NCBI RefSeq assembly: GCF_003018255.1
Contig: NZ_CP027440.1
Length of the DNA: 64,000 nt
Source: Escherichia coli
Lineage (GTDB): Bacteria > Pseudomonadota > Gammaproteobacteria > Enterobacterales > Enterobacteriaceae
Direction: 5' to 3' (one strand)
The position numbers and the translations under genes were made by a program. Below, piece after piece: positions 19,527-55,699 of this stretch; positions within the stretch are counted from its first letter, which is position 1; each line of letters begins with the position of its first letter. The notes under the pieces are model-generated. The model was not told the DNA's origin. It was given only the letters and a program-made list of their open reading frames with translations, and did no database searches.

Positions 19527-19737
19527 GACTCAATCATTTTTTGAACAAATAGATAAATTTTGCGCAACGGCGGTGAATACAGGAAAATTCGATTTGAACG
19601 ATGTTATTTATCTTTGATTTCGGCTTTATTAATTCACTCAATCAATATATTGGCACTGATTACAATTATACCTTTTTATTTTTCTGTGTCATCATGCCTC
19701 CGTTATTAGCCTTTTATCGTCTTGTTTATATTTTTTT

Positions 19738-19762
19738 GGCCGGCATGATGCCGGCTTTTTTT
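19738..19762. terminator. GC hairpin ggccggcat/atgccggcc flanked by A/T runs on both sides (bidirectional intrinsic terminator signature) in the yedR-yedS intergenic region
   Basis: Read directly; no transcribed unit assigned. Confidence 0.4.
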
Positions 19763-20068: not shown

Positions 20069-20157
20069 ATAATGAAAAGAAAAGTTCTGGCAATGCTGGT
20101 CCCGGCGTTATTAGTTGCTGGCGCAGCAAATGCGGCTGAAATTTATAATAAAAATGG
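20069..20157 (+). pseudogene. yedS: 5' fragment of porin gene yedS (signal peptide + AEIYNKNG), truncated by the prophage
   Basis: [29 protein letters not shown] is a typical OmpC-family leader and mature start; the frame collapses right after. Confidence 0.75.
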
Positions 20158-20222
20158 GTTTTTTGTTGCCTGAAATTTATGCTCTTTAAAATCATGATGT
20201 TAGAAGCACTGTTTTTTAACGA

Positions 20223-20244
20223 TGGCGACAAAATGGCGGCAGCG
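20223..20244. repeat. Prophage attachment-site core, left copy (tggcgacaaaatggcggcagcg)
   Basis: 21/22 identical to 54609..54630; lies immediately after the ogr stop, where P2-type attP sits. Confidence 0.7.
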
Positions 20245-27533: not shown

Positions 27534-28106
27534 TCAGGGGGATTCATTGATCTTATTTGCCGGAAATTTTCTATAAATGGTAGAAACGCCTACATCAAAA
27601 ATCAGTGCAATACGCTGTCTTGATTCTCCGGCCTCGAGTAAACGCCCAATCTGTGCCCACTGTTCGGTGGTCAACTTAGGACGGCGTCCACCTACTCTGC
27701 CTTTGGCACGAGCTGCAGCCAGCCCTGCCCTGGTACGTTCAACTATCAGTTCGCGTTCCATTTCAGCCAGGGCACCCATGACATGAAAAAAGAAACGGCC
27801 CATTGGGGTACTGGTATCAATACTGTCAGTCAGGCTTCTGAAATTCACACCACGCTGGCGCAACTCTTCTATCAGCGTAACAAGATGCCGCATACTGCGC
27901 CCCAACCTGTCCAGCTTCCAGACAACCAGCGTGTCTCCTGCCGATAGTGTCCTGAGTAGTTTTTTCAGCCCCGGTCTGTCGGACTTAGTGCCACTGATTT
28001 TGTCCTCAAAAATCCGCTCACATCCCGCGCAGTTCAGTGCATTACGTTGCAAATCGGTGTTCTGGTCATTTGTTGACACGCGTACATAGCCAATAAGCAT
28101 GATCAT
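27534..28106 (-). CDS. Serine-recombinase DNA invertase (Hin/Gin/Pin family)
   Basis: N-terminal GYVRVSTNDQ catalytic-serine motif and C-terminal HTH; abuts the invertible tail-fibre segment. Confidence 0.9.
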   Translation of the reverse strand: MIMLIGYVRVSTNDQNTDLQRNALNCAGCERIFEDKISGTKSDRPGLKKLLRTLSAGDTLVVWKLDRLGRSMRHLVTLIEELRQRGVNFRSLTDSIDTSTPMGRFFFHVMGALAEMERELIVERTRAGLAAARAKGRVGGRRPKLTTEQWAQIGRLLEAGESRQRIALIFDVGVSTIYRKFPANKINESP

Positions 28107-28127: not shown

Positions 28128-28664
28128 ATGATGCCAGTTAGCTGTTACCTCTGCATTTTCTTAAACGTTGGTTTGGGAGAAGGTTCAGCATTACCTGTTG
28201 GTGCGCCTGTTCCGTGGCCTTCAGAGACACCTCCAACAGGCTGGCTGAAATGCAACGGGGCGGCTTTTTCTGCTGAAGAATACCCGGAACTGGCAAAGGC
28301 TTACCCGACAAATAAATTGCCTGATTTACGAGGTGAATTTATTCGTGGCTGGGATGATGAACGTGGTGTGGATAGTGGGCGAACTCTGCTTTCAGCGCAA
28401 GGAGATGCTATTCGAAACATTACTGGCGGTTTTGGTCAGTTGCGCGTAAACAGCGAAATTAATGCAATTGTCGATGTTCAAAGTGTGAGTGGGGCTTTTT
28501 ACGGAGGTACCTCAGTCCGGAATAACATCAATGTGTCTATGACATACGCTAATGACCGAAAAATCCGACAAGATGTTCACTTCTCGGCGGCAAATGTTGT
28601 TCCAACAGCAAATGAAAATCGTCCACGTAACATCGCCTTTAATTATATTGTGAGGGCCGCATGA
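28128..28664 (+). CDS. Alternative tail-fibre C-terminal module (silent in this orientation; fused to H after inversion)
   Basis: No independent start is needed; its frame passes through the crossover site coding FLNVGLGEGS, matching LTYLGLGEAA in H. Confidence 0.65.
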   Translation: MMPVSCYLCIFLNVGLGEGSALPVGAPVPWPSETPPTGWLKCNGAAFSAEEYPELAKAYPTNKLPDLRGEFIRGWDDERGVDSGRTLLSAQGDAIRNITGGFGQLRVNSEINAIVDVQSVSGAFYGGTSVRNNINVSMTYANDRKIRQDVHFSAANVVPTANENRPRNIAFNYIVRAA

Positions 28665-29265
28665 TGAATAAAGCTGTATTAAATAGCAAACTCATTGCCA
28701 TAAAAGCGGGAGACATTATCATTTATAATTATGATGGTGAAACGCGGGAATATATTTCTACATCAACTGAATATCTCGCTGTCGGCGTCGGTATCCGGCA
28801 TGTTCTTGTTTGGATGCACCAGGTACACATAAAGCTGGTTATGCAATTTGTCGTTCTGTAGATTTAAACTCATGGGAATATGTGCCAGACCATCGCGGTG
28901 AAGTTGTCTATAACACCGAAACGGGAGAATCAAAAGAAATCACAGCTCCGGGTGATTACCCTGAAAATACAACCACTATCGCCCCATTAACGCCATACGA
29001 TAAATGGGATGGCGAGAAATGGGTGACGGATACCGAGGCACAGCATAGCGCCGCAGTAGATGCAGCGGAAGCACAGCGCCAGTCGCTGATTGATACTGCA
29101 ATGGCTTCCATCAGTCTGATTCAACTGAAATTGCATGCCGGACGTAAACTGACGCAGGCAGAAACAACCCGGCTTAACGCTGTGCTGGATTACATTGACA
29201 CGGTGACGGCAACAGATACCAGCACCGCGCCGGATGTCATCTGGCCTGAACTACCGGAGGCGTAG
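28661..29265 (+). pseudogene. Tail-fibre assembly (chaperone) gene paired with the alternative fibre module; split over two frames (28661..28861 and 28810..29265)
   Basis: C-terminal part ends ...VIWPELPEA like the G paralogue ...IEWPTPPVVQAR; the N-terminal 66 aa is in a different frame. Confidence 0.5.
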
Positions 29266-29680
29266 GCCATTCAATATCTGGAGCACTGGAGGTATCAACC
29301 AGTTCCAGTGCGTCCAGATAATCCAGCCATAAATTATATTGTTCCAGTTCGTCACCTTTCAGACGACCAATAGCAGCTTTGCCAGGCCACTGATGGGTGT
29401 TGATGTAGGTATTGGCTTCTGAAACCAAAGATATTTTTTTCATTTCAGCCATCAACACCTCATCCTCTTTTGAAGGCGGTGGGGAATTAATCCATATTGG
29501 CCGTCCTGAACTGTCAGCGCCAATTTCTTTCCCTTCTGGATGCAGCCCAAGAAATTGCTCATATCTTTCTCTGGTAATTTCAATAACATCATCAGGAAGC
29601 GTTCCCGCATCCTCATATTCTGGAAACAATTCTTGCAGATAAAAACTTTTACTTCCGGGTGAAAAGAATACTGAGTTCAT
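29237..29680 (-). CDS. G: Tail-fibre assembly protein (P2 gpG-like) for the currently expressed fibre
   Basis: 147 aa, directly after H. Confidence 0.85.
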   Translation of the reverse strand: MNSVFFSPGSKSFYLQELFPEYEDAGTLPDDVIEITRERYEQFLGLHPEGKEIGADSSGRPIWINSPPPSKEDEVLMAEMKKISLVSEANTYINTHQWPGKAAIGRLKGDELEQYNLWLDYLDALELVDTSSAPDIEWPTPPVVQAR

Positions 29681-42460: not shown

Positions 42461-44428
<1,968 letters not shown>

Positions 44429-44458
44429 GTATTTTGCCTATTTTAGGTGATAGCGCGC

Positions 44459-44481
44459 GCTCGTATCCCCGCCACGCCTGC
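44459..44481. other. Probable cos site (cohesive-end sequence)
   Basis: The minus strand reads GGCGTGGCGGGGATACGAG, resembling the P2/186 19-nt cohesive end (GGCG(A/T)GGCGGGGAAAGCA...) as I recall it. Confidence 0.5.
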
Positions 44482-44520
44482 CCGCTTTATGTAGTGGTTT
44501 TCATGCACCTGCATGATCTA

Positions 44521-44547
44521 CGCAAAAGCCCGCCAGTTCTGGCGGGC
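44521..44547 (-). terminator. Rho-independent terminator ending the tum/DinI-like operon
   Basis: 9-bp GC stem gcccgccag/ctggcgggc with a 2-nt loop, followed on the minus strand by TTTTG. Confidence 0.75.
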
Positions 44548-44682
44548 CTTAGCAAAAACGATCCTCAAACGATCATGCGATCTCATGCGGCATAGACATG
44601 CACTACAGAGCTAACGCCTCGCAAGGGCTCGTTGTTCAACCTTGCTGACGCCAGAAACAAGTTCAGACGCCAGCAACGTTTC

Positions 44683-45268: not shown

Positions 45269-47710
45269 TTAATACAGGTTCCGCCACTGATCATCTTCCT
45301 GCAAACGCTGGTTCCGATAGAAGATACGCAGGCCTGCTCCTGACGGAATACTGCCTCCGCGAAGGAGTAAATCGACCTCTTTCTCGCTGCCATCAAATCC
45401 TCTGGACTTCAGCTCATACACGAGCTGCAGTCGCTGATGGTCTGTAATTCGCTGTTTGTAGTCTTTACGCCGTTTCGGTTTCACCAGGCGTAACCTTGCA
45501 GCCAGTTCCCGGCGCTCTTTTTTGCTCATACTGTGCAGGTAATCGTGCAACTCCTTGTCATCCATGCGGGTAATGTCCGTTCTGGTATCCCCATCAGCTG
45601 ATTTGTCTTTCCCTTGTTGGTTCAAATTTTCAGCAAGGGGACAGTTATTGCCACGAGTCCAAGGGGCGCAAGCGCCCTGGTCGGCTGCCGCCTCCTGAAC
45701 GTCAACGGCCTTACGAACCATTTTCCACTTCACTGCATGAGTGCAGATCTTGCCCTCTGCAATGGGTGACCAGATGCCATAAATACGAATACCGTGATCA
45801 CCATAGGCGGTCGGCTCTTCGTTGATTTCATAAGCGGTTCTGATCAAGTGATATTTGCGGGGAACCAGTACGCCGCCCTGCTTCATAATGTAGGTGGCAA
45901 AACAGCCAGCATCAGCAGCAGCCAGAATGGCATCAAGGCGCGGGTTATCCAGTACCGACGCACCTGCTTTTTTGTCACCCTGTTGCCTTGCCGCCTGACC
46001 AGCCAGCAATCGCAGTTCACGGTAAGCCTGACGCCCCGGAATGCCAAAGAAGCGGAATTGCTGAACACGATGCAGAGACGCCCAGGCATTAACGTATTCA
46101 GCATTATCACGCAGGGATTTACCCGTTTCCTTGCTGATCTCGCCAGCCAGACCACGCCCGTCAATGTTCTTACTGATGTATTTCGCGATGTAGCTTGTTG
46201 GCGTACCTTTGCGCGGGTTTATCAGCTCAGACTTAAAGCGTGGCCCCGTGTTATTACCCAGCTCCTCGCGGTCTTCACGAATGGCAAACTTACGCAGCAA
46301 AGCAGTAATGGCGCGGCGATCTTTTTTGCGCATGAAACACAACAGGTGCCAGTGAACTGTGCCGTCATGATGCGGCTCAGCCACCCGCACGCCATACCAG
46401 CGCAACCCGGTTTTGTGCATAGCCTTACGAAATGCAGCAAACATGCCGACCAGATAATCGCTGCTTTGTCTTACCGTCGCGTTTGTCCAGGTCGGGTTTG
46501 GTCTGCCGTTATTGAGCGTGGAATGGAAACGCGACGGACAGGTGATGGTGTAGAAAACGGCACAGTCACTGCGCATTTCCGCGATAAGCTCCAGACCTTT
46601 AACACAGGCCATCATCTCATTGCGGCGATGCGCCGGGTTGCTGCTGCTGGCCTTTACCACATCTTCCATATCCAGCGTGTCGCCGTTTTCGTTCACCAGT
46701 TCATGAGAACGGAAAAACTCCAGCGACTTACGGCGCTGCTCACGTTTATGCATCACGGCTTCATAGCTGACATAGGGAGATGCTTTTTTGCTGACCAGGC
46801 AGACAGCACGCAACTGCTCTTCCCGCCATTCGCAGCGCATCTTCCATAATTTCCGATACCACCAGTCGGCACACAACATACGCGCCAGCGAACCCGGAAT
46901 GAGTTCATAGGGCACGGGTTTGCGACGCTTTCTTTTCCGACGAAGTTGCTCAAACGCAGGCGGGATAACATCCAGTCGCAGGGTTTCCGCTGCCACCTTT
47001 TCCCATGTCTTGCGGATTTCTTCTGGCTTAACATCATCGGTGGCGTACAAATCACCACAAGCGGCATCAAGGCACATGCTCATATGCGCAGCTACCAGGG
47101 TGGACAGGCGTTTCACCTGATCCTGACTCATTTCAGGCAGGATCAGCAGGCCGTCCAGCCCTTCATGGCTCGCCATAAAGCGAAAAGAAGTGGATAGCTG
47201 ACTGTCGCGTACATGCTCCAGCCGTTCCAGACATGGCTTAATCGTCTCACGCAAATAGCGAGAATAAGCCTTTGGCCTGCCCAGGCTGCTGAAGTATTCA
47301 ATACGTTGCATCAGCGGCTTGCTGATATGGGAAGGCTGGGCGTTAACGTCCGCCAGAATGACCATGTCCGGATTAAAACGCTGCTGCTCATGCGCCAGCT
47401 TTGCCCGGCTAATGAGCTTATCCTGCTCCATTTCGCGTTGGACAGGATCACGGGATTCATTAAAGAAATAACGCTCCCAGACCTGATCACTCAGTGCCTC
47501 GCGGCGCAGTTGTTCCTGCTCGTTATCGGCAGCGTACAGAGTGATCAGGTTTGAAAGCGCAGAAACCGGCGCAACTTCCGCCGGGTCCAGATAAGGGTTA
47601 ATGGCTTTCTTAGGTAAATTCCACGAATAACCCCCGGCAGAATTCTCAATGCTACCGGAAGTTACACTGACAAATGGATCGGCAAGACGGCCTGTGCTGA
47701 TCTCTGTCAC
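45269..47710 (-). CDS. A: Replication initiation protein (P2 gpA / 186 RepA family rolling-circle initiator, 813 aa)
   Basis: Size, position and paired catalytic tyrosines (...YIAKYISKN...). Confidence 0.88.
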
Positions 47711-48717
47711 TCACAGACTCCTGCATATACACTGCTGCACACCGCTTTATCATTCATGCCTGCCAGCAGGTCAAACTGCATACCGCCCCGAGTTGTTAAG
47801 GCCCAGTCCCGATAAGTTTCAATGCCATAAGCATCAACAGTTATGACTTCGATCCGTTTTTCATCACGGCGCGGATCATGCGTGGATGGAAAGAACGTTG
47901 AATTGCCACGTCTTGAACATTCCGCAACCAGTCTTTCCCACTCAGCCACTCGGCGGATTTCTTCTGGCCAGCGTTGGAAAATCTCAGCAAGTTCTGACTT
48001 GCGAGCATGAATACATGGCATACAACCGACACGACTGCATCCCTGCATATAAAGGGGGTTAGGCTTAATGCCATGACGTTTGGCAATAGCAAACACATCC
48101 TCATGCAGCCAATTAAGGATCGGACGATAAACATGCAGGCCCAGAGTATTGTCTGCATCGTCCTCCCACTCAGGCAACAATGCACGTTCCGGTGATTCCT
48201 GCCCCCGGACTCCTTGCCAGCTGATTACCTCATCGTATTCATCCAGAGCCGGATCGATTACCTGTGTACGTATTGGTTCATGTTTTAGTTCAAAAGTGCA
48301 GAAACGAGCTTTTGTTGAAGGGAAGCGACCTTTCCACATGCACAAATCAAGAAACGGAACGCCGGTTGGTTTAAGGATTTCCAGTGCCCGGTAAATACGT
48401 TCCTCAGCCTCATCTGTCGACATACCACATTCCTCAACGAGAGAAATGGGCCACTTTTCCGCAATGAATTTACGTTTCCCTTCTATCTGGCGTGTGAAAT
48501 CCGCTTTGACGCGAATAATCTTGCCCAGCTTTGATTCCAGATAATCCAGATATTCTATTGTCTGTGGATGTTCATGACCCGTATCGGCAAATACAGAAAT
48601 ATGCGGAACATCGTTTTCAATGGCTCTTAACCATTGAGCGAGACTATCTTTGCCACCAGAAGTAGTGATGATGTTAATGGTGCTTGAAGCAAAGCAACGC
48701 GGATCGATAGCATTCAT
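47707..48717 (-). CDS. PP-loop ATP pyrophosphatase, PAPS-reductase-like (336 aa)
   Basis: PP-loop motif TTSGGKDS near the N-terminus; Cys-rich C-terminal part; translationally coupled to dam upstream and A downstream. Confidence 0.75.
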
Positions 48718-49562
48718 GCGCGTACCTCAACGGTACGGTCAGAGCCGCTGGCAAAATCGACACCAAACCACCCAGCTGATTTGGTGGCAATGATTTCTGT
48801 TGCAGATTTACTCTCGCCAGCTGACACGCCAATGCTGCGTTTTGACTTGATGTAGTGGTGAGTGAAATTGCGATACAGCGAACGGATCAGGGATGTGTCA
48901 CTGTTAGAAACAATGACCGGATGACCTTCAGATGATCGATGTTCAAGAACGGATGCCAGGTGATACTGGTCATCTTCAGTGAAGCCATCAGTGTGATAGC
49001 CGGAAAACGTACCGTCATAAGGCGGATCGCAATATACCACATCCCCCACCTTCAACATCGCCAGCGTTTCATCAAAGCTGGCGCAGATAAACGTTGCCCG
49101 CTGGGCTTTCTCTGCAAATGCGCGAATTTCTTTTTCAGGGAAATACGGATTTTTATAATTACCGTAGGGAATGTTGAAATACCCGCTCTTGTTATAGCGA
49201 CATAGCCCACGGTAACCATGACGATTGAGATACAGAAAATATACCGCTTTCATGAAATCAGTAATTTCAGTGGAGTAATTAAACTCCTGCCTTATGTTGT
49301 AATAAGCCACCTCTCTGTTTGCTTCCTCAAATAAAGCTCTGGCACGAGATATAAACGCCTCACAATCAGCAGCAACCTTTTTATAGAGGTTGATTAAATC
49401 AGGATTAATATCCGCAACCAGATAGCTGGGGTAATCCGTCTCCATCATCACAGCACAAGAACCCGCGAAAGGTTCAACCAGTCGCGGGCCAGCAGGAAGG
49501 TATTTTTTCAGTTCGGACATAATGGCGGTTTTATTACCCGCCCATTTCAGGATGGTGCTCAT
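48714..49562 (-). CDS. dam: DNA adenine methyltransferase (Dam-type, D12 class)
   Basis: [11 protein letters not shown]-binding start and DPPY catalytic motif; start set to [11 protein letters not shown]. Confidence 0.9.
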
Positions 49563-49861
49563 ACAGCACCTCCTGCAATAACATATCCTAAAGCTTCTAA
49601 TGGGGTTAATGAGCGAATTGATAGCATCACCCATTGTTCTGAAACTGCCATGACGTCATTAACCGGAAGCACATGAGAGATAACCGCGGCCCATTCCCTA
49701 CCCGTAAATACGCCATGCTTCCATTCGCAAAGAGAAAGAACATCACCAACTTTATAGCCACGATCGTCTTTACGAAGTTCAGCCGTCTTTTGACCTGCAA
49801 CCACAGCGTTGAAATACTTAGGTGCAATTTTTAATTGATGGATACGCACAGCCCCTGTCAT
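49559..49861 (-). CDS. ASCH-like small protein (~100 aa)
   Basis: ORF 49559..49921 with start set to [11 protein letters not shown]...; fold assignment is from memory of similar phage proteins only. Confidence 0.5.
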
Positions 49862-52071: not shown

Positions 52072-52641
52072 GTGGATTTCAATAGCGGCGGTAAGAAAGC
52101 CATAGAACGTTTAGTTGAAGCATATGGGTTCGGTACCCGTCAGGCTCTCTGTGATCATTTAGGTGTTTCTAAGAGCACCATGGCAACGCGCTATATGCGT
52201 GATATTTTTCCAGCAGATTGGGTAATCCAGTGCGCCCTTGAAACGGGCACCTCGCTTAATTGGCTAACAACAGGGCATGGTTCAAAGCAAGCATCAGCAA
52301 ATACAAATACTATGGAAGTTGCTAAATATGTATTATCTGATGGGGCCTTGTGTGAAGACGGTTTTTATATTTTCGATAGGGAATTTCTACCGTCGGCATT
52401 CAAGAATATTTTTGCAATCACAGATAATAATTCTGAATTTGTTTGTGATAAGGAATTTGATGATATACGTGATGGTAAATGGGTAATAAGTATTGATGGC
52501 GAAATAACGATCCGTGACATTACTCGTTTACCCGGTGGAAGAATCTTCGTCGAGGGTGGAAACAGAGCCTTCGAATGCAAGATAGAAGACATTGAAATAA
52601 TTGGTAAAATTATAAGTTTAACAGTCAAGTATGTTAAATAG
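52072..52641 (+). CDS. cI: CI-type immunity repressor (186 CI-like, ~189 aa)
   Basis: ORF 51985..52641; start reassigned to a GTG preceded by GGAGGA; HTH region [29 protein letters not shown]. Confidence 0.75.
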
Positions 52642-52657
52642 TACCGGGAGGAAAACT

Positions 52658-52849
52658 ATGCTTGGTAAGGTATTTTTTGTGGTTTTGTCATGTTCTTTGT
52701 TATTAAACCCACTAACTACCTATGCTAGAAATTATCCCTGTTCAGGGAAAAAGGGAGGTGTTTCTCACTGTACCTCAGATGGCAAATTTGTTTGCAATGA
52801 TGGAACTATTAGTAAATCCAAAAAAATCTGTACTAAAAACTCACGATAA
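52658..52849 (+). CDS. Small secreted cysteine-containing protein (63 aa precursor), cargo between cI and int
   Basis: RBS GGGAGGAAAA; signal peptide [23 protein letters not shown] with an AxA-like cleavage site; mature part has 4 Cys. Confidence 0.5.
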
Positions 52850-53037: not shown

Positions 53038-54081
53038 ATGGCAGTACGAAAACTAACCACAGGGAAATGGCTTTGCGAATGTTACCCCGCCGGACGCAGC
53101 GGGCGTCGCGTGCGTAAACAGTTCGCTACCAAAGGCGAAGCATTAGCTTTTGAGCGTCACACGATGGAGGAGGCAGAAGCTAAGCCTTGGCTTGGTGAAT
53201 CGGTAGACCGTCGAACTCTACAGGATATCGTTGAACTCTGGTTCAAACTGCACGGCAAATCCCTGACCGCTGGCGAGCATGTTTACGACAAGTTGATACT
53301 GATGGTCGATGCTCTCGGAAATCCCCTCGCCACCGATCTAACATCCAAAATGTTCGCGCACTATCGCGATAAGCGCCTGACGGGTGAAATCTACTTCAGC
53401 GAAAAATGGAAGAAAGGAGCCAGCCCGGTAACTATCAATCTGGAGCAAAGCTATCTGAGTGGGGTCTTTAGCGAGTTAGCCCGACTCGGTGAATGGACAG
53501 CACCAAATCCACTGGAGAACATGCGTAAATTCACCATTGCCGAAAAAGAAATGGCCTGGCTGACACATGAACAAATCACAGAGCTTCTGTTCGACTGTCA
53601 ACGCCAAAGCCCCCTGCTCGCTCTTGTCGTCAAAATCTGCTTGAGCACCGGAGCACGTTGGCGCGAAGCTGTGAACCTGACACGTTCTCAGGTCACGAAA
53701 TACCGAATCACATTTGTCAGAACTAAGGGCAAAAAAAACCGCAGCATTCCGATCAGCAAAGAGCTGTATGAGGAAATTGTTGCCCTAGACGGCTTCAAAT
53801 TATTTACTGACTGCTACTTCCAGTTTTTAGCCGTGATGGATAGAACCTCGATCGTACTACCACGCGGGCAACTTACCCACGTTCTACGCCATACGTTCGC
53901 AGCACATTTTATGATGTCCGGCGGGAACATTCTTGCTTTGCAAAAAATCCTGGGCCACCACGATATAAAAATGACTATGCGCTATGCACATCTTGCCCCT
54001 GATCACCTTGAAACAGCACTGCGTTTCAATCCATTAGCCACACTTTCCACTAAAGCAACGAACCTTGAAGCAAACAGCTAA
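53038..54081 (+). CDS. int: Tyrosine integrase (P2/186 family)
   Basis: ORF 52882..54081 trimmed to MAVRKLTTGKWLCECYPAG...; C-terminal catalytic region HVLRHTFAAHF...MRYAHL. Confidence 0.9.
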   Translation: MAVRKLTTGKWLCECYPAGRSGRRVRKQFATKGEALAFERHTMEEAEAKPWLGESVDRRTLQDIVELWFKLHGKSLTAGEHVYDKLILMVDALGNPLATDLTSKMFAHYRDKRLTGEIYFSEKWKKGASPVTINLEQSYLSGVFSELARLGEWTAPNPLENMRKFTIAEKEMAWLTHEQITELLFDCQRQSPLLALVVKICLSTGARWREAVNLTRSQVTKYRITFVRTKGKKNRSIPISKELYEEIVALDGFKLFTDCYFQFLAVMDRTSIVLPRGQLTHVLRHTFAAHFMMSGGNILALQKILGHHDIKMTMRYAHLAPDHLETALRFNPLATLSTKATNLEANS

Positions 54082-54121
54082 CACGTTAAAATAGCGCACC
54101 TTCCCTTAATAGAGTAAAGCT

Positions 54122-54607
54122 ATGTCCGGCATTGCGGATTTTTTTTCAGTTGTGGCTGCAGTTGGGGCAGTTGTAATCATCCCTGCTGCATATCAACCTA
54201 TTTATCAATCATCTAAAACAAAAAACTATGAGTCTTTGGTAAAAGTTGATTGGGGCAATGAAGGTGACATCTCTACTTCTTATCCACATTTCATACATAT
54301 ACAGTTAGAGAAAGCAGAAGGTGATTGGACTTTTTCAGGAGAACTCATCTGCACAATTAATCCCGAAGAAAAGTTCGTCATTCAGGGTAAACTGAGATGT
54401 CTTAGGACTATAGATGCTGTAATACATCGTACTATTGGCTGGCGGGCTATTGAGATTGGAAAGGCTAAAATCAAGTATGACCGCCGCACAAATCAGTGTC
54501 GATTTATCCCACAAAAGGTTGCTCAGAAGAAACTTGAGACTGATTGCGAACGTGCAATCTTCAGCACCAGCCTCCCTTTATGGGGAAATGACAAATCTCC
54601 GGTATAA
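54122..54607 (+). CDS. Hypothetical protein (161 aa) with an N-terminal hydrophobic segment, cargo between int and attR
   Basis: ORF ends 1 nt before the att core; no recognisable motif. Confidence 0.5.
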   Translation: MSGIADFFSVVAAVGAVVIIPAAYQPIYQSSKTKNYESLVKVDWGNEGDISTSYPHFIHIQLEKAEGDWTFSGELICTINPEEKFVIQGKLRCLRTIDAVIHRTIGWRAIEIGKAKIKYDRRTNQCRFIPQKVAQKKLETDCERAIFSTSLPLWGNDKSPV

Positions 54608-54608
54608 G

Positions 54609-54630
54609 TGGCGACAAAGTGGCGGCAGCG
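54609..54630. repeat. Prophage attachment-site core, right copy (tggcgacaaagtggcggcagcg)
   Basis: Direct repeat of 20223..20244 with one mismatch. Confidence 0.7.
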
Positions 54631-54721
54631 GTTGGCATTGTCCCGTAATCGCCACTCCTTATCACTAACCTAACTTATTGATTGTCTTGCAACTCATTGT
54701 TATTTCTAACCCATTTACATA

Positions 54722-55699
54722 AATGGCAATAAAGTTGAGCTATACGGCAAGATGGTTGGTGAGCGAATTCTGACCGACCGTGAAAATGGTGAAAAAGGCG
54801 ATAATTCTCAAGATACCTCTTATGCCCGTGTAGGCGTGAAAGGTGAAACTCAGATCAACCCTGAACTGACTGGTTACGGTCAGTTTGAACTAGACCTGGA
54901 AGCATCAAACAGACACAACCCTGACCAAACTCGTTTGGCATATGCTGGTTTGAGTTACAAAGATTTTGGTTCATTCGACTACGGTCGTAATGTCGGTGTC
55001 GCGTATGATGCAGAAGCATTTACTGATATGTTTGTTGAGTGGGGCGGTGACTCATGGGCTGGTACTGACCTGTTCATGACCAACCGTACCAACGGTGTTG
55101 CAACCTATCGTAACACAGATTTCTTTGGCATGGTTGAAGGTCTAAATTTTGCTCTGCAATATCAGGGTAAAAATGAAGGTACAGGCAACTACAAAGCAAA
55201 TGGCGATGGCCATGGTTTATCTGCAACTTACACTATTGACGGTTTCTCATTTGCTGGTGCTTATGCAAACTCTGACCGTACTGATTGGCAGTCTGGTGAT
55301 GGTAAAGGCGAAAGAGCCGAAGTTTGGGCGTTGTCAACAAAATATGACGCTAACAATGTCTATGCTGCTGTGATGTACGGTGAATCTCACAACATGAATT
55401 CCGACGACGGTGATGTTGTGAACAAAACACAAAACTTCGAAGCTGTTCTGCAATATCAGTTCGACTTTGGTCTGCGTCCATCCATCGGTTACTCCTATTC
55501 TAAAGCACTGGACGTAGCAGGTTACAAAGATTCTGATCGTCTGAACTATATTGAAATCGGTACCTGGTATTACTTCAATAAGAATATGAACGTATATACC
55601 GCTTATCAGATCAACCTGCTTGATAAGAGTGATTATGTTCTCGCTCATGGACTGAACACCGACGACCAACTGGCAGTTGGTATCGTCTACCAGTTCTAA
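54722..55699 (+). pseudogene. yedS: 3' part of porin gene yedS (OmpC/OmpF family), resuming at NGNKVELYGK...
   Basis: Porin beta-barrel signatures, ending in the canonical ...GIVYQF. Confidence 0.8.

Follow-up and report, generated by a model that had tools for sequence, protein, structure and literature searches.

A predicted membrane-anchored β-barrel protein as optional cargo in the int-att slot of a 186-like Escherichia coli prophage

An open reading frame of 161 codons (ORF161), lying directly downstream of int and in the same orientation in a prophage of Escherichia coli (assembly GCF_003018255.1, contig NZ_CP027440.1), is shown by comparative analysis to be a genuine gene under purifying selection and to constitute an optional accessory ("moron") cargo between int and the P-arm of attP of this 186-like prophage. 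The encoded protein is predicted to consist of one transmembrane helix followed by a small β-barrel; a defence or exclusion role is plausible by analogy, and the protein may block other phages. Our best explanation, held tentatively and falling somewhat short of probable, is that ORF161 acts as a single-gene anti-phage membrane effector, by exclusion or abortive infection, of the same general kind as Cap15 and OptE. The window analysed here is a stretch of 64,000 nucleotides in which the prophage occupies positions 20151-54726 (34.6 kb); it belongs to the P2 family, and a 186-type CI repressor gene, an Apl/Cox-like gene and a CII gene are found upstream of int. The features that carry the argument are the following, by position in the window, with the evidence in brackets.

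20143-20244, plus strand: attL, with the junction 20150|20151 followed by the P' arm (split of yedS and alignment)
53038-54081, plus strand: tyrosine integrase of the P2/186 type, 347 aa (RefSeq at a 99.9%-identical locus; Pfam Int_N and Phage_integrase on identical loci)
54045-54607, plus strand: approximate extent of the cassette, with a substitute int C-terminal tail, the promoter-like element and ORF161 (alignment with the related prophage L003)
54065-54092, plus strand: promoter-like element TTGAAG-16 nt-TAAAAT, with the int stop codon inside it and 29 nt between it and the ATG of ORF161 (conservation)
54122-54607, plus strand: coding sequence of ORF161 (ORF list, sequence, RefSeq annotation, dN/dS)
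54131-54193, plus strand: predicted single transmembrane helix, codons about 4-24 (Kyte-Doolittle, AF2)
54245-54592, plus strand: predicted eight-stranded up-and-down β-barrel, codons 42-157, predicted cytoplasmic
54251-54271, plus strand: family signature W44-x-N46-E47-G48-D49-I50, in the β1-β2 loop (15-member alignment)
54606-54627, plus strand: tandem arm-type repeat AAGTGGCGACA/AAGTGGCGGCA, overlapping the stop codon of ORF161 (repeat search)
54709-54726, plus strand: attR core half-site and true phage/host junction (three-way alignment; palindrome CCATTTA..TAAATGG)

ORF161 runs from ATG to TAA and starts 40 nt past the int stop codon at 54081; the coordinates and length given in an earlier sequence-only reading of the window were borne out exactly, on the plus strand. 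In five complete E. coli genomes, which match the window at 99.9% identity over the prophage end, RefSeq names the protein "hypothetical" (WP_000014148.1), and residue 76 is an isoleucine in the window and a threonine in the common allele. When compared to homologues of approximately 70% nucleotide identity, 37, 25 and 85 differences were counted at the first, second and third codon positions, respectively, and dN/dS was 0.07-0.12 with synonymous sites near saturation (Nei-Gojobori; ORF161 against the L004 and L005 homologues from metagenomic contigs, 55-68% amino acid identity). Since the ratio is this low and the differences fall mostly at the third codon position, we consider ORF161 a real gene. 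The frame was intact in all ten contexts read, 1192 blocks of the collection index contain the exact protein, and the GC content of the gene is 41% compared to 51% for the prophage. A terminator scan returned a match in the first codons of ORF161, where a weak hairpin is combined with a T8 run (54124-54147, plus strand, GATTTTTTTTC, D-F-F-S codons). The T8 run is also kept in L004 and L005, and could be an attenuator, a slippage-prone tract or mere codon choice.

The promoter-like element scores 9/12 in a consensus scan, which by itself is at chance level, and the argument for a promoter is therefore one of hexamer conservation: neither hexamer of TTGAAn-16-TAAAAT varies among four cassettes (the window, L004, L005 and L013) whose remaining sequence is only about 70% identical and whose spacers and flanks differ. 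ORF161 is co-oriented with cI-int, and the terminator scan gave no convincing terminator between them. In five P2-like contigs of IMG/VR the start of a distant homologue falls inside or immediately behind the int stop codon, an arrangement consistent with an operon shared with int. We infer that ORF161 is expressed in the lysogen.

How the gene came to stand at this position is best seen in L003, a related prophage that is also integrated at yedS and in which no gene separates int from the arm repeat. There the int frame runs through the repeat and ends ...NPLATLPSGDKVAAAVGITP / ...PSGDKVAAAVGITP, both encoded by the arm region, whereas in the window homology to L003 is lost past ...NPLATL and regained exactly at AAGTGGCGACA. 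The insert of approximately 560 bp consists of a replacement int tail (STKATNLEANS*), then a short intergenic region and finally ORF161, and the cassette replaces the last codons of int. In an evenly spread sample of 33 related E. coli prophages the slot was empty in 23 (about 70%) and held other inserts in 9, so that the suggestion of the sequence-only reading, that the gene fills a gap where related phages set int against attP, agrees with both L003 and this sample. At least six other occupants were seen, as follows.

A Panacea/SocA gene with a 251-aa partner
A 240-aa protein with an RNxxxH (HEPN-like) motif, in E. coli DSM 103246 (L022 2779-3501)
A DUF2971 protein matching the PADLOC candidate PDC-S31 at 3e-23
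An 89-aa protein
A 110-aa protein, found in BL21
IS4

Panacea/SocA is the commonest alternative cargo seen at the int-att slot. ORF161 itself was considered as a Panacea/SocA toxin-antitoxin and this was rejected, there being neither a Pfam match nor a partner gene; the Panacea module takes the place of ORF161 in the slot of other genomes. The 240-aa cargo protein of E. coli DSM 103246 ends ...SGDKVAAAVGITP*, the same tail as the int of cargo-free prophages, which points to different cassettes having been spliced at one point and having borrowed a C-terminus encoded by the arm repeat. The ORF161 cassette documents splicing between the last codons of int and the arm-binding sites that leaves attP undisrupted.

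The position had been described as typical for cargo, and it fits that the slot swaps unrelated genes and that int-att is listed independently as a minor P2 defence hotspot, with 3% of P2 systems, in a 2026 preprint. WP_000014148.1 was not found in the main texts or supplements of the P2-hotspot literature searched. Like the cargo of the P2-like hotspots (old/tin, Z/fun and int-att), ORF161 is optional, AT-richer and enclosed by conserved phage sequence, its slot is filled by unrelated genes in sister prophages, and it is co-oriented with the lysogenic genes. It differs in not being among the described P2 hotspot systems, PADLOC being empty, and, compared to most hotspot cargo, in that its family recurs at the slot beside integrases that are only 47% identical. 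Defence by hotspot association is a weak argument, because hotspots also carry non-defence morons. The gene is carried by 5 of 5426 complete E. coli genomes, while related integrases occur in about 1100. Absence from most related prophages, which the sequence-only reading had regarded as grounds for refutation, was therefore literally what we found; however, this rarity is no argument against function, since it is the pattern expected for hotspot cargo and since the gene is intact and selected where present.

The prophage splits the porin gene yedS after codon 26, with codons 1-26 at 20073-20150 and the remainder at 54727-55699. Alignment to the uninterrupted yedS of E. coli NRG 857C, performed as a three-way comparison of attB, attL and attR, placed the host/phage junctions at 20150|20151 and 54726|54727. 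The only sequence common to both junctions is AAATGG; reconstruction of attP gave the palindrome ACCCATTTA-CA-TAAATGGGT as its core. Prophages integrated at another site match the window by megablast up to 54726 and no further, and a search for exact 12-mer direct repeats between the prophage ends gave nothing useful. Since the yedS alignment fixes the right junction at 54726|54727, the crossover lies about 110-120 nt 3' of ORF161, and the claim that the gene ends 1 nt before the att core has to be abandoned. Even if ORF161 gives no protection, the att assignment of the prophage is corrected by this result.

What follows the stop codon of ORF161 is a 22-mer, TGGCGACAAAGTGGCGGCAGCG (54609-54630), that recurs with one mismatch at 20223-20244. 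It is a tandem repeat, AAGTGGCG(A/G)CA x2, with a spacing of 11 bp and an inverted third copy at 54649-54656, and on the other side the P' arm carries the tandem repeat ATGGCGACA/ATGGCGGCA at 20222-20241, abutting an ogr-like gene. The 22-mer was considered as the att core and rejected, being an arm-type tandem repeat present on both attP arms with the crossover elsewhere; the tandem repeats on both prophage arms presumably correspond to P2 Int arm-type sites.

In 15/15 other genomes inspected, prophages with 99.9% identity across int, ORF161 and the arm adjoin rcdA, and at that site the identity with attP runs further, to AAATGGGTTTTTTGTT. For these two reasons yedS looks like a secondary integration site, and one integrase type seems to use at least two sites, yedS and rcdA. 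The Hfq-binding sRNA rseX (Rfam RF01401, 92.5 bits) is encoded just upstream of the disrupted yedS at 19673-19762 on the plus strand, and the prophage cuts off the promoter and 5' end of yedS from the remainder of the gene.

As a single sequence, the ORF161 protein gave no match in Pfam, PHROGs, PADLOC (empty at E<=1), NCBIfam or a PDB sequence search, in accordance with the previous remark that no recognisable motif is present, and tblastn did not find it in 50,697 phage records. A Pfam-A scan of ORF161 together with eight relatives returned noise only, even at E<=10. The family was searched by an exhaustive HMMER scan of 1.84 billion representatives followed by two profile iterations over 5.8 billion proteins, which recovered only about 17 clusters, all of them without names; the remote-homology check proposed in the sequence-only reading thus yielded a family, with no match to a known one. 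Its members share a plan of approximately 136-182 residues with a single hydrophobic helix at the N-terminus and, behind it, a stretch rich in K and R. In 15 members, reaching down to 20-28% identity, W44, N46, E47, G48 and G73 are invariant and D49, R108 and W154 nearly so. The W-x-NEGD motif is also found in the int-adjacent relatives from IMG/VR; a scan of species-representative genomes for W[GSH]NEGDI[STN] returned no relatives, and this pattern is probably too narrow. The cysteines of ORF161 are not conserved in distant members. A protein of 5271 aa in the representative library (P0007) matches positions 104-140 of the family profile in 10 separate stretches (E 4e-8); these may reflect a repeated β-hairpin unit like the GWR...KIKYD region, or a compositional artefact.

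The N-terminal hydrophobic segment noted previously is confirmed by a Kyte-Doolittle maximum of 2.25 (19-residue window) at residues 4-22, with no second segment in ORF161. One transmembrane segment was found in 14/15 family members, and the extra one in P0011 looks like an artefact of an upstream start. The 15 residues past the helix hold 2-7 lysines and arginines as opposed to 0-3 before it in the 15 members, and because of this enrichment an N-out/C-in topology with a cytoplasmic barrel is predicted. Modelling by AF2 with five near-identical sequences gave a pLDDT of 46.9 and was discarded; after expansion of the family to an alignment of 15 sequences the model became usable (pLDDT 85.1, pTM 0.73) and showed a continuous helix at residues 2-41 followed by eight β-strands. 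The structure prediction suggested earlier has thus given a transmembrane helix plus an eight-stranded β-barrel. Strand order would place the W-x-NEGD loop (β1-β2) together with the GWR turn (β5-β6) at one end of the barrel. A search of AFDB50 by structure returned uncharacterised proteins of the TM-plus-barrel type only, among them relatives from Salmonella and Flavobacterium, and a search of BFVD gave weak matches, including a viral S-2TMβ protein at E 0.11. The ORF161 fold matched avidins and designed barrels at least as well as it matched Cap15. As in the avidin and lipocalin (calycin-like) barrels, eight antiparallel up-and-down strands close into a predicted barrel, and the conserved loops of ORF161 would, by strand topology, lie at the end corresponding to the mouth where those proteins bind their ligands; in contrast to them, ORF161 is membrane-tethered and predicted cytoplasmic, and there is no sequence similarity.

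The closer relatives L004, L005 and L013 each lie just downstream of the C-terminus of a P2-type int, and a peptide-pattern scan of IMG/VR added five more loci (L037-L041) in which int, the last gene of a 186-like CII-Apl-CI-int module, is followed directly by a distant member. These five members are 22-28% identical to ORF161 and matched the family profile in hhalign with 97.7% probability (E 2e-12), and the int of L041 is only 47% identical to that of the window. The ORF161 family thus recurs as a passenger of the int-att slot across P2-like phages that are themselves divergent. Further relatives occur in the accessory regions of prophages with a λ-type terminase (L007 and L009), in an Acinetobacter island with HEPN, HipA and PAAR genes, beside MazE/PIN, beside a DUF4760 gene (P0011) and, in one case, alone between metabolic operons.

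No partner was common to these contexts, and we therefore treat ORF161 as a single-gene unit. A 249-aa gene beside the Acinetobacter homologues and the DUF4760 gene (P0011) were tried as conserved partners and are unrelated. A gene of about 191 aa precedes the distant members at L007 7253-7837 and L009 9277-9852 (30% identity, E 6e-26); it was rejected as a general partner, being conserved only in these two λ-terminase-type contexts, and it possibly forms a two-gene module with the ORF161 relative in that branch only. The ~191-aa protein has a D...E-x-K-like motif (FIDVV...LEIK) and the look of a PD-(D/E)xK nuclease, with Pfam and PADLOC empty. PADLOC scans of the neighbours of distant homologues gave weak HNH/HEPN matches only.

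In the mechanism that we tentatively propose, ORF161 would be expressed from the prophage in the lysogen, and the barrel mouth with its W-x-NEGD loop would sense a ligand or peptide that either arises or is lost in the course of infection. Oligomerisation of the transmembrane helix would then compromise the inner membrane, according to the logic of the TM-plus-β-barrel effectors Cap15 and OptE, but without a dedicated nucleotide synthase. In Cap15 and OptE the β-barrel binds a cyclic dinucleotide and oligomers formed through the transmembrane element breach the inner membrane. Cap15 (CBASS) and OptE (Panoptes) are the closest analogues of ORF161 by architecture only: they have an obligate two-pass transmembrane element where ORF161 has one helix, and the W-x-NEGD motif is the ORF161 family's own. 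Membership of ORF161 in S-2TMβ was tested and rejected, as Pfam and PADLOC were negative and hhalign of the family profile against VnOptE (sequence taken from the paper's supplement) gave 0.4% probability. A profile search of the PDB with the ORF161 family did not retrieve Cap15. No CD-NTase, mCpol or other cyclase or synthase was present in the approximately 20 contexts inspected, and the neighbours in the window are int and attR.

T4 Imm, P22 SieA and HK97 gp15 are small inner-membrane proteins of phages or prophages that exclude other phages. ORF161 is likewise small, prophage-encoded and predicted to reside in the inner membrane, but it shows no homology to them (PHROGs empty) and its bulk is predicted to be cytoplasmic instead of lying in the membrane or periplasm.

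A bolder form of the effector hypothesis would make ORF161 the founder of a stand-alone "1TM-β-barrel" class of prophage immunity, a long-term int-att passenger of P2-like phages that works as a Cap15/OptE-like sensor-effector without a synthase of its own; the barrel would directly sense a metabolite, nucleotide or peptide made or depleted by the phage, possibly eavesdropping on the signals of other systems, and permeabilise the membrane. We regard this extension as improbable.

Among the alternatives, a possible though rather unlikely one is that ORF161 is a lysogenic-conversion or host-physiology factor with no role in defence, its tethered cytoplasmic barrel binding a small molecule or peptide terminus, as barrels of the avidin, lipocalin and Gid4 type do, and modulating a host membrane protein or stress response to the benefit of the lysogen. 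Most contexts of the family are, however, mobile or rich in toxin and defence genes, the other occupants of the int-att slot are TA- or defence-like, and a family that amounts to about 17 clusters in 5.8 billion proteins is so extremely sparse and patchy that it resembles conflict genes more than physiology genes.

That ORF161 instead serves phage lysogeny or integration, for example as a membrane-tethered modulator of Int or excision or in prophage maintenance (addiction), is quite unlikely. The immediate proximity of L004, L005, L013 and L037-L041 to a P2-type int, the start positions inside or immediately behind the int stop codon at the IMG/VR loci and the int tail supplied by the cassette would all suit such a role, but most related prophages integrate and persist without ORF161, members also occur far from integrases (terminase-adjacent, in Acinetobacter islands and at chromosomal loci), and a membrane anchor is not expected of a recombination cofactor.

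Very unlikely is classical superinfection exclusion by a periplasmic barrel (N-in/C-out) that prevents the injection of DNA or obstructs a receptor or a transport component, on the model of T4 Imm, HK97 gp15 or the ToxS periplasmic barrel. The distribution of lysines and arginines around the helix favours a cytoplasmic barrel, the cysteines are not kept in distant members, and ORF161 has neither a lipobox nor a cleavable signal-peptide pattern. Finally, a decaying or chance ORF in attP-proximal DNA is hardly credible and already effectively refuted by the selection analysis: database families have no match to ORF161 and one contig (P0002) carries a 139-aa variant in which an in-frame deletion has removed the WxNEGD region, but dN/dS, the dominance of third-position changes, the retention of length, architecture and motif down to about 22% identity and the confident predicted fold all argue against it.

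Returning to the single-gene membrane effector, ORF161 is not extraordinary, since phage hotspots are full of unknown genes; it is worth testing for its fold, its motif, its Cap15-like architecture without a synthase and its repeated occurrence beside P2-type integrases. Testing the hypothesis would cost little, as a family without annotation here combines a confident fold with a sharp motif for mutation. Should ORF161 protect lysogens, a single gene would suffice for a minimal membrane effector with a tiny barrel as its sensor, and the little-studied int-att hotspot of P2-like phages would gain a concrete case that is easy to clone.

Several other features of the prophage were observed. A small secreted YdcA-family protein (NCBIfam NF007463, 8e-34) is encoded between cI and int (52631-52849, plus strand), and in three ORF161-bearing sister prophages (L027, L032 and L034, 261-1844) this position holds an unrelated 527-aa protein; the interval between cI and int is a second variable slot flanking int. 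The hotspot between replication gene and portal carries an RT-Toprim fusion of 646 aa (42461-44401, minus strand), an Ec67-like retron that PADLOC identified as retron RT-Toprim type I-C (E 9e-217). Rfam gave no msr/msd match at the gathering threshold in 19000-56000, and the retron ncRNA presumably lies near 44400-44650. A 335-aa PAPS-reductase-family protein is encoded between a Dam-type adenine methylase and replication gene A (47707-48717 and 48714-49634, minus strand); it looks like a further cargo insertion, because in the sister prophage L001 Dam lies directly beside the replication endonuclease with no gene between. In the tail-fibre region, a serine DNA invertase gene (27534-28106, minus strand) adjoins oppositely oriented short ORFs (28128-28664 and 28810-29265, plus strand; 29237-29680, minus strand), an arrangement which suggests that this region holds an invertible host-range segment.
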